Shown one piece after another: positions 1,575 to 2,470 of a stretch of DNA of 4,502 nucleotides; the stretch's first letter is position 1; each line of letters begins with the position of its first letter. The notes under the pieces are model-generated. The model saw nothing but the letters and a program-made list of their open reading frames with translations. It searched no databases and was not told where the DNA came from. The stretch comes from a virus (taxonomy: Duplodnaviria > Heunggongvirae > Uroviricota > Caudoviricetes), in the IMG/VR virus record IMGVR_UViG_2634166457_000004, positions 1-4,502 of that record; one strand, written 5' to 3'. The position numbers and the translations under genes are program-made.

Positions 1575-2470
1575 ATGAACGTGAACTGTCCATTATCCGT
1601 GCACTGGGTGAAGAATTCTCCGCGGTGCTGGAGGAATTACAGCGTATATTTGAGGCGAAGATTGCCGCACAGTCAGGGGCGTTTGAAGAAAAACTGGCTT
1701 CCCTGTCTGTGGTATTACAGAAGTGCGTGACGGGCGATGATGTGCGTCCGATGCTTGAGCAGATGGTGAAGGAGGCGGTAAGCCATATCCCTGCTCCGCG
1801 TGATGGCCGTGATTATGATCCCGATGTTCTGCAGCAGGCAGTGAATGATGCGGTCGCAAATATTCCGGTACCGGCGGACGGCAAAAGTGTCACCCCCGAT
1901 GATGTGCGTCCGATGCTTGAACAGATGGTGAAGGAGGCAGTGAGCCATATTCCTGTTCCGCGCGACGGTCGTGACTACGATCCGGATGTGCTGCAGAAGG
2001 CAGTTCTGGATGCGGTGAGTGCCCTGCCGGCTCCGCAGGACGGGCGTGATGCCACGGCACTGGAAGTGCTCCCCGCGATTGACGATCAAAAATCCTTTCC
2101 CCGGGGCACGTATGCCACACGCCTGGGCGGACTCTGGCGGGCGTATGAAAAAACGCACGGGATGCGGGGATGGGAATGCCTGGTTGACGGTGTGGCGGAT
2201 ATTGACGTCAGCATGACAGGCGAGCGGTCGTTCTCTGTGGTGGTCCGGCAGAGCAGTGGTCAGTGTACGGAAAAAACATTTTCCCTGCCGGTGATGCTCT
2301 ACCGCGGAGTGTTCAGAGCCGGTGAAACCTACCACCCCGGCGATACGGTGACGTGGGGCGGCTCGTTGTGGCACTGCAACAGCATGACCGGTGATAAACC
2401 CGGAGAAGCTCATTCATCAGGCTGGACCCTGGCTGCAAAACGTGGGCGGGATGCAGGAGGTGGAAAATGA
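1571..2470 (+). CDS. hypothetical virion-module protein: N-terminal helical segment, tandem [I/L]PxPxDG repeats, C-terminal CBM5/12-like putative carbohydrate-binding domain
   Basis: 299-aa ORF. ATG 1571 overlaps the portal stop (ATGA 1571-1574) and its own stop overlaps the next start (ATGA 2467-2470). RBS-like AGGGGGA at 1554-1560. Residues 1-55 are Ala/Leu/Glu/Lys-rich with no Pro (helical). Residues 56-163 are two 54-aa tandem repeats. C-terminal residues ~170-299 contain Y-HPGDTVTWGGSLWHC-(12 aa)-GW, resembling the aromatic signature of chitin-binding type-3 / CBM5/12 modules. No capsid, protease or scaffold motif recognised. Confidence 0.75.
   Translation: MNERELSIIRALGEEFSAVLEELQRIFEAKIAAQSGAFEEKLASLSVVLQKCVTGDDVRPMLEQMVKEAVSHIPAPRDGRDYDPDVLQQAVNDAVANIPVPADGKSVTPDDVRPMLEQMVKEAVSHIPVPRDGRDYDPDVLQKAVLDAVSALPAPQDGRDATALEVLPAIDDQKSFPRGTYATRLGGLWRAYEKTHGMRGWECLVDGVADIDVSMTGERSFSVVVRQSSGQCTEKTFSLPVMLYRGVFRAGETYHPGDTVTWGGSLWHCNSMTGDKPGEAHSSGWTLAAKRGRDAGGGK
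1736..2059 (+). repeat. in-frame tandem direct repeat, 2 x 162 nt (copies 1736-1897 and 1898-2059), each containing two ~27-aa sub-repeats with an [I/L]PxPxDG motif
   Basis: Direct comparison: GATGATGTGCGTCCGATGCTTGA(G/A)CAGATGGTGAAGGAGGC... recurs exactly 162 nt apart. The first ~100 nt of the two copies are highly similar, then they diverge while keeping the PxPxDG motif. Protein units: DDVRPMLEQMVKEAVSHIPAPRDGRDYDPDVLQQAVNDAVANIPVPADGKSVTP and DDVRPMLEQMVKEAVSHIPVPRDGRDYDPDVLQKAVLDAVSALPAPQDGRDATALEV. Confidence 0.9.
2455..2460 (+). promoter_or_regulatory. ribosome-binding site (AGGAGG) for the gp6-like connector gene
   Basis: Perfect AGGAGG with a 6-nt spacer before ATG 2467, lying inside the 3' end of the upstream CDS. 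Confidence 0.6.

Follow-up and report, generated by a model that had tools for sequence, protein, structure and literature searches.

A divergent CBM5/12-like knob on a putative accessory fibre protein whose gene lies between those for portal and head-tail adaptor in a lambdoid prophage

The stretch of DNA analyzed here (positions 1 to 4,502 of IMG/VR record IMGVR_UViG_2634166457_000004, referred to as the window) comes from a long-tailed lambdoid prophage and covers its head-neck portion, and the subject of this analysis is an open reading frame (ORF) for 299 amino acids (aa) located on the plus strand at positions 1571-2470 and called the fibre gene in the following. In the ORF list it lies between a portal gene (210-1574, plus strand), which codes for an HK97-type protein of 454 aa (PF04860, expect value (E) 3.9e-81; phrog_2271/phrog_12), and a gene for a gp6-like head-tail adaptor Ad1 of 108 aa (2467-2793, plus strand; PF05135, E 9.6e-8; phrog_40), which agrees with the initial annotation of this DNA, in which a carbohydrate-binding domain had been placed at the C-terminus of a head/neck-region protein. 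The fibre gene overlaps both neighbors by an ATGA (1571-1574 with the portal gene and 2467-2470 with the Ad1 gene), the portal stop codon TGA at 1572-1574 overlapping the fibre start codon ATG at 1571. The sequence AGGGGGA (1554-1560, plus strand), which contains a run of five G (1555-1559) and resembles a Shine-Dalgarno (SD) sequence, is located within the last portal codons, 11 nucleotides (nt) upstream of the ATG at 1571. The fibre gene is a separate cistron, translationally coupled to the portal and Ad1 genes. In a Pfam scan, the match to the portal fold PF04860 was confined to ORF 210-1574, and none was found within ORF 1571-2470.

The predicted fibre protein consists of an N-terminal helix, a stalk and a C-terminal knob. 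A single long helix is predicted for aa 3-51 (1577-1723, plus strand) in the full-length AlphaFold2 (AF2) model, with a predicted local distance difference test score (pLDDT) of about 90-95, and is presumed to be an attachment or oligomerisation segment; throughout the family, the N-terminus forms an amphipathic helix of a similar pattern, about 35-50 residues long. The stalk (1733-2056, plus strand) is made up of two repeats of 54 aa (aa 55-108 and 109-162), each of which comprises two short helices and two 12-residue IPxPxDGxD linkers, the helices of the AF2 model extending over aa 55-71, 84-96, 109-125 and 138-151. On the DNA level the stalk is evident as a direct repeat (1735-1854 and 1897-2016) with a spacing of 162 nt and 86% identity, which was seen by a direct-repeat search; Tandem Repeats Finder reported no array in the ORF. 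Near-identical E. coli prophages (loci L006-L087) have ORF lengths of 299, 353, 407, 461, 515 or 569 aa, each length exceeding the one before by a single 54-aa repeat, and the window carries the shortest form. In distant relatives, collagen G-X-Y repeats take the place of these helix-linker repeats (Pfam Collagen matched 16 of 59 relatives), and some have more than 120 triplets. Pfam matches to DUF4244 and TetR_C_35 in the helical part were sub-threshold and were treated as noise.

When a family profile was compared with 1.84 billion cluster representatives, 10,040 of them matched at E ≤ 1e-3 and 1,926 at E ≤ 1e-30, and the best matches were mostly proteins of 200-500 aa with the knob domain at the C-terminus. 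N-terminal helix, variable-length stalk and knob are the common architecture of this family. A first homologue search had returned mostly contig-end fragments, among them P0023 ("gp6-like connector, partial"), which suggested a fusion to the adaptor; this candidate was rejected, as P0023 merely ends at a contig end. One protein of 4341 aa (P0125) displayed 34 separate matches to the knob profile together with some collagen triplets, so that, judging from its sequence, the CBM-like (carbohydrate-binding module-like) unit is evidently also used in many copies to build very long fibres.

The G-run at 1555-1559 is subject to a one-base length polymorphism. With five G (G5), as in the window, portal and fibre proteins are encoded by two genes, whereas with six G (G6) a single portal-fibre reading frame results. 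Alignment to the window reveals G6 at the same site in E. coli O157 strain 493/89, for which PGAP annotates a portal of 753 aa, and in phage 705R7, and phage 2851 also has the fused form, with 859 aa. Phage BP-4795, in contrast, has the split form, consisting of ORF58 (454 aa) and ORF59 (461 aa), the latter corresponding to the fibre gene of the window; the two-gene state is also present in the phage genomes FSL SP-016, in which gene 00155 corresponds to the fibre gene, and RHph_X2_26. Among IMG/VR contigs G5 was counted 45 times and G6 37 times (37/82 fused), and the downstream frame is intact in most copies of both alleles. G6 was found on one junction haplotype and G5 on three. The two states mostly track haplotypes, and no more than two haplotypes were seen in both states with the flanks unchanged, which reflects either infrequent switching or errors of sequencing; phase variation of the G-run was therefore discarded. 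Nor is programmed -1 frameshifting supported at this site, as no canonical X XXY YYZ heptamer was found there and the 100 nt downstream fold no better than shuffled sequences (z -1.25).

For a wider sampling, one genome per species was scanned, covering Enterobacterales, Pseudomonas, Burkholderiales, Rhizobiales, Sphingomonadales, Neisseriaceae and Acidobacteriota, and 70 loci were obtained, with 64 complete knob-bearing ORFs. Free-standing fibre ORFs accounted for 62 of these 64, the portal-adjacent ones having lengths of 167-581 aa. Most free-standing ORFs begin 1-17 nt within the 3' end of the portal gene (exactly 4 nt in 27 cases), and a 4-nt overlap with the Ad1 gene was detected in 33 family loci. 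Only two loci of this species sample, L112 and L130, are fused, and natural in-frame portal fusions have lengths of 753-859 aa in E. coli, 1243 aa in Pantoea and 729 aa in an acidobacterial metagenome-assembled genome (MAG). A purine-rich SD-like motif (AGAGGA/AGGGGG/AAGGGG) precedes the start codon by 10-13 nt in 57 of the 64 family loci. The G-run of the window is this motif, turned into a homopolymer in the E. coli lineage, in which one added G fused the two genes; the two-gene state is the original design and the G6 fusion is derived. Because the two-gene state prevails in the wider sampling, the arrangement of the window is the normal two-gene design and not a broken portal gene. ORF 1571-2470 matches positions 618-859 of phrog_2271, a "portal" of 859 aa that represents the fused form, and databases name the fibre protein "portal protein" because an added G joins it to the portal in roughly half of the relatives from E. 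coli. Neither Pfam, NCBIfam nor PHROG holds a functional name for the family, and NCBIfam gave no match to the ORF.

The initial annotation had assigned the aromatic signature of CBM5/12 (chitin-binding type 3) modules, with Trp replacing Tyr at two positions, to nt 2078-2467, which correspond to aa 170-299 of the ORF. The motif peptide TYHPGDTVTWGGSLWHCNSMTGDKPGEAHSSGWTLAAK occupies aa 253-290 (nt 2327-2440) and does contain the spacing Y..GD.V.W.G..W.C....P......W. In a profile alignment to the chitin-binding domain (ChBD) of Bacillus circulans chitinase ChiA1, W262 and W267 are located opposite the two Tyr residues of that domain and C269 opposite its Cys. The core motif of CBM5/12 is formed by Y254, G257, V260, W262, G264, W267, P277 and W285, at columns that are invariant or nearly so in the family and that also align to the CBM12 of a chitin-oligosaccharide deacetylase (COD) from Vibrio. 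With the Pfam profile CBM_5_12 (PF02839), the whole ORF obtained 18.9 bits (E 0.0015) and aa 150-299 obtained 20.6 bits (E 4.6e-4). Matches to PF02839 were found independently in 44 of 59 relatives at E ≤ 0.01, the best one at 1.4e-7, and the precomputed CBM_5_12 match of P0023 was only faint. A single-sequence search of the PDB gave a best E of 0.29 and a profile of the whole C-terminal domain matched All3316 alone, so that a sub-profile of 58 residues was needed to reach CBM12 and CBM5 domains. This 58-residue family profile matched the solved domains of the Vibrio COD (E 1.6e-5) and of the ChBD of Pyrococcus furiosus chitinase (8e-4), and further those of the COD from V. parahaemolyticus (2.4e-3) and of the ChiA1 ChBD (0.02). 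The profile hidden Markov model check thus held for the relatives and for the family profile but not for the window protein alone, which stays below the Pfam gathering score.

AF2 modeling of aa 150-299 yielded an all-beta structure with a pLDDT of 88.5, the same region reaching about 97 in the full-length model, and the small antiparallel beta fold superposes on solved CBM5 and CBM12 modules. The folded domain, the C-terminal all-beta knob, extends over about aa 166-292 (2066-2446, plus strand), in essential agreement with the limits proposed before. The PF02839 matches of relatives, the family profile and the predicted structure together rule out a chance resemblance to CBM5/12, and a CBM5/12-like fold of this segment is supported by profile comparison and modeling.

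The knob is composed of two divergent CBM5/12-like modules around an insert, the second module being better preserved. A first, degenerate half-module (aa 174-215, KSFPRGTYATRLGGLWRAYEKTHGMRGWEC; 2090-2215, plus strand) is followed by a three-stranded beta insert (aa 216-242; 2216-2296, plus strand), for which both AF2 models have strands at 208-215, 220-227 and 232-238, and by the second module (aa 243-292; 2297-2446, plus strand), which holds the TYHPGDTVTWGGSLWHCNSMTGDKPGEAHSSGWTLAAK motif with the core residues Y254, G257-D258, W262, W267, H268-C269, P277 and W285. In a profile-profile comparison of the two modules (E 6.8e-5), KSFPRGTYATRLGGLWRAYEKTHGMRG, the hairpin motif of the first module, aligns with ETYHPGDTVTWGGSLWHCNSMTGDKPG. 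The tandem CBM12 of Vibrio COD was aligned by Foldseek over both modules, and the length of these alignments is explained by the presence of two modules in the knob. At the C-terminus there is a basic Gly-rich tail KRGRD(G/A)... (aa 290-299; 2438-2467, plus strand), in which K290, G292 and D294 are invariant and R293 is nearly so; in some relatives the tail runs on into further collagen-like triplets. The pair H268-C269 (within LWHC) is nearly invariant in the family and C212 (within GWEC) is common in the first module, and these residues might bind a metal or be joined by a disulfide within the knob.

The residues Y254, W262, W267 and W285 occupy fold-defining core positions and are buried. 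In canonical CBM5/12 modules, chitin is bound by an exposed Trp in the loop that follows the conserved Ala/Cys (W687 in ChiA1; a W-W pair in CBM5). The loop between Cys and Pro has 8 residues in the family versus 12 in ChiA1 and is therefore 4 residues shorter; in the window it reads N-S-M-T-G-D-K-P (the DKPGE region), at positions that are variable and non-aromatic family-wide. As the core aromatics are buried and the Trp loop is missing, the aromatic signature emphasized in the initial annotation marks the CBM5/12 fold but provides no argument for chitin-type binding. Ratios of nonsynonymous to synonymous substitution rates (dN/dS) of 0.06-0.27 against both G5 and G6 relatives indicate that the knob is under purifying selection, and from Enterobacterales to Rhizobiales it is the most conserved part of the family. 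Glycan binding by the knob seems plausible, and the case is weakened by the missing canonical loop and by this conservation pattern.

Putting these features together, ORF 1571-2470 might encode an accessory virion fibre, attached to the neck or head of a long-tailed lambdoid prophage of the Stx1/Stx2c (Shiga toxin) type, with a helix as anchor, a stalk, and a knob that makes weak, non-canonical glycan contacts; we adopt this interpretation tentatively, at a likelihood that falls just short of probable. Three chains would form a trimer, which is deduced from the collagen of relatives, as collagen implies trimers. The N-terminal helix would anchor the fibre at the portal/adaptor (neck) or at the adjacent capsid and the stalk would carry the knob outward, where it would cap the distal end, hold the three chains in register during folding, and might contact surface or mucus glycans weakly and in a non-canonical manner. 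Such contacts would help reversible adsorption, as the whiskers of T4, the head fibres of phi29 and the neck-passage structures (NPS) of lactococcal phages do. A location outside the head is favored by the length of the collagen in some relatives: more than 120 G-X-Y triplets correspond to a triple helix of more than 100 nm at 0.286 nm per residue, roughly double the internal width of a T=7 head, which would be hard to fit inside. It is also favored because the same type of knob sits on external fibres. Foldseek matches include the tail fibre of Agrobacterium phage 7-7-1 (E 6e-4), the receptor-binding complex of phage Milano and the fibre of cyanophage A-1(L), matches in BFVD are phage proteins with collagen, CBM5/12 and ChiC_BD, and there are weak matches to tail-fibre PHROGs, so that the occurrence of related modules on phage tail fibres, as stated in the initial annotation, is borne out. 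By analogy, T4 has its wac gene beside genes 13 and 14, which belong to the neck, and CBMs are present in the neck-passage proteins of lactococcal phages.

Several observations weigh against an external glycan-contacting fibre. A fusion to the C-terminus of the portal, which occurs in 37/82 IMG/VR contigs, in complete O157 genomes, in phage 2851 (which is reported to be infectious) and in L112 and L130, would put the protein inside the capsid. The trimer is deduced for a window protein that has no collagen repeats itself. The exposed chitin-binding Trp loop of canonical CBM5/12 modules has no counterpart in the knob, the window protein scores below the Pfam gathering score of 26.2 bits for PF02839, and conservation of the knob across hosts with unrelated surfaces is the opposite of what is typical for a receptor-binding tip. 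Compared to O157 493/89 and BP-4795, the window has an extra C at nt 78, which splits a conserved 73-aa ORF (42-264) into the frames 42-194 and 73-264 and may reflect partial prophage decay, which would count in the same direction, or a sequencing error. Finally, a literature search retrieved no study of this protein and none that places it in the virion.

A rival explanation is an external fibre whose knob binds no sugar and is instead a foldon-like registration domain or end-cap, or a contact for another virion protein; we consider it somewhat unlikely but worth substantial weight. The knob is conserved while stalk and N-terminus vary, purifying selection on it is strong, the canonical ligand-binding Trp loop is gone, and the near-invariant H268-C269 and the KRGRDG tail would suit a structural or metal site more than a host-specific site; also, C-terminal globular domains often nucleate collagen-like trimers. 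On the other hand, CBM5/12-like modules are widely reused on phage fibres beside enzymatic or receptor-binding parts, and non-canonical binding faces are common in CBMs. That the ORF of this window is a functionless remnant of a split portal pseudogene, left behind as the prophage decays, seems quite improbable. Such an origin would fit with the annotation of the split form of related Stx phages as a pseudogene or as two portal genes, with the insertion of one nucleotide at nt 78, by which the conserved 73-aa ORF before the portal gene is disrupted, and with the finding that O157 prophage pools are mostly defective (PMC2669165). Nevertheless, the ORF has its full length, its start codon, SD sequence and coupling are intact, the low dN/dS values stand against a loss of function, and the two-gene state, which is also that of BP-4795, is ancestral and predominant.

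The coupling to the portal gene and the fusion in many relatives, which the initial annotation had not seen, raise the alternative that the protein resides within the capsid as a partner of the portal crown, its helix extending the crown in the manner of the P22 barrel or the protein acting like SPP1 gp7/MuF, and its knob acting in the head or after ejection, for example on the glycan strands of peptidoglycan; this we regard as unlikely. The C-terminus of HK97-fold portals is located in the crown and faces the capsid interior, so that the in-frame fusions to the portal C-terminus in E. coli, Pantoea and the acidobacterial MAG are in its favor, as is the fused lineage, which keeps the ORF intact and under purifying selection. 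The gene is located directly 3' of the portal gene, like muf genes, and portal-downstream genes often encode portal-bound internal proteins, such as the portal-binding gp7 of SPP1 (PMC5576092). However, a Pfam scan at E ≤ 1 revealed no MuF domain, apart from one E. coli haplotype group, which is largely clonal, fusions are seldom seen, and, as the genes already overlap and one indel suffices to join them, the fusions are weak evidence of co-location. Fused alleles retain the in-frame ATG and the SD sequence and could still produce the free protein, and cargo at the portal C-terminus is tolerated in T4. The more than 100 nm of collagen in some relatives would exceed the head, and the same knob type is found on external tail fibres. 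A more elaborate variant, in which we place little credence, would be an internal axial fibre that stands on the portal crown (non-covalently in G5, covalently in G6) along an elongated head and organises the DNA spool or sets the head length, the number of 54-aa repeats (299-569 aa) acting as an adjustable spacer and the knob serving as an internal contact or as an ejected peptidoglycan-binding module. In a weaker version of it, ribosomal slippage on the G-run would yield free and portal-fused forms from either allele. Elongated heads have been reported for long-tailed Stx1/Stx2c phages (PMC8065619, PMC12029490), and a particle of 44 x 95 nm was obtained from O157 Sakai (PMC2669165).

Comparison with known systems shows in which respects the predicted fibre protein is unusual. 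The knob shares with CBM5/12 modules (PF02839; ChiA1 1ED7, Streptomyces griseus ChiC 2D49, CBM5 of Serratia marcescens ChiB) a small beta fold of about 45-55 residues and the core Y..G(D).V.(Y/W).G..(Y/W).(C/A)...P....W, and its modules are in tandem like the CBM12 of Vibrio COD (3WX7, 4NY2, 8YH4). It differs from canonical CBM5/12 in its degenerate first module, in the three-stranded insert between the modules and in a Trp-loop stretch that is 4 residues shorter, and, unlike the modules of chitinases, it is joined to no glycoside hydrolase. It resembles fibre knobs of phages and contractile injection systems (CIS), namely those of 7-7-1 (9RKV), Milano (8FQC) and the Anabaena CIS protein All3316 (7B5H), with Foldseek E values from 6e-4 to 0.02 and a match of All3316 to the family profile at E 4.6e-5; the combination of collagen with a CBM5/12 module is common in uncultured phage proteins. 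Whereas the genes for 7-7-1, Milano and All3316 proteins are located in tail/baseplate modules, the gene of the window lies between portal and adaptor genes and is coupled to both.

The fibre protein might work like T4 fibritin (wac), phi29 gp8.5 and the lactococcal NPS, which are non-essential trimeric fibres with an N-terminal anchor and a C-terminal knob encoded by genes next to neck genes. The location of its gene within the head-tail connector module, as expected for neck or head fibres, was found for 62/64 complete ORFs, and neither its sequence nor its fold showed similarity to fibritin, gp8.5 or NPS. The location directly downstream of the portal gene (62/64 loci free-standing, most of them adjoining the portal) is shared with SPP1 gp7 and Mu gpF (MuF). 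Proteins of the MuF type are portal-associated, and their C-terminal domains vary (PMC5576092). In contrast to these, the fibre protein has no match to PF04233 or PF06152 at E ≤ 1, possesses a collagen or helix-linker stalk, and is conserved in its C-terminal knob and not in an N-terminal domain; membership in MuF was ruled out on the basis of the Pfam scan. The G6 portal has a long, initially helical C-terminal extension similar to the C-terminal barrel of the P22 portal, but in most genomes this part is translated as a protein of its own; it terminates in a beta knob and shows no sign of a 12-helix barrel.

These results correct the annotation of thousands of entries named "portal protein", "portal pseudogene" or "gp6-like connector": the protein belongs to a very large family that is uncharacterised, and its gene is distinct, conserved and translationally coupled. 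While the knob is of a known type, it is a divergent CBM5/12-like form on what would be a phage accessory fibre, in a family that is routinely mis-annotated as portal. If the protein is indeed an accessory glycan-binding fibre, it could affect adsorption or the persistence in gut mucus of long-tailed Shiga-toxin phages. The free form of BP-4795 and the portal-fused form of phage 2851 constitute a natural allele pair that would be informative about the location of the protein and about the tolerance of the portal C-terminus for cargo.

The window shares 92-95% DNA identity with converting phages of the Stx1a and Stx2c types and with some of the Stx2a type, and prophages with this degree of identity are present in 1,247 of 5,426 complete E. 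coli genomes. A promoter and terminator scan of the window detected nothing relevant on the plus strand. In close relatives, the module starts with TerS and TerL (small and large terminase), a protease-capsid fusion of about 640 aa and the 73-aa ORF, followed by the portal gene and then the genes of the window. The fusion gene, for protease, scaffold and capsid, lies between the large terminase and portal genes (L001 7072-8997; L158 1874-3808; L159 1-1706), and this order of capsid before portal is kept from E. coli to a Rhizobium phage. In HK97 the protease/capsid gene is located downstream of the portal gene, unlike in this module; as the capsid fusion gene is upstream here, the fibre gene takes the slot usually held by protease and capsid. 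In Rhizobium phage RHph_X2_26, an SGNH-hydrolase gene (L159 2169-3383) is located between the capsid and portal genes, near the fibre gene, and its product is a possible glycan-esterase partner of the fibre.

Downstream of the Ad1 gene, the window contains genes for a head closure protein (2803-3153), a gp10-like protein (3150-3596) and a tail terminator (3593-3937), and from 3998 the start of the gene for the major tail protein, which is truncated at the end of the window. The last 49 residues of the major tail protein encoded in the window (3998-4501) match the Hoc-like head-decoration PHROG phrog_2973 (E 5e-7), which suggests, from this similarity, an immunoglobulin-like C-terminal extension on the major tail protein. 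In one related phage record, the major tail gene is labelled "fibritin (wac)".

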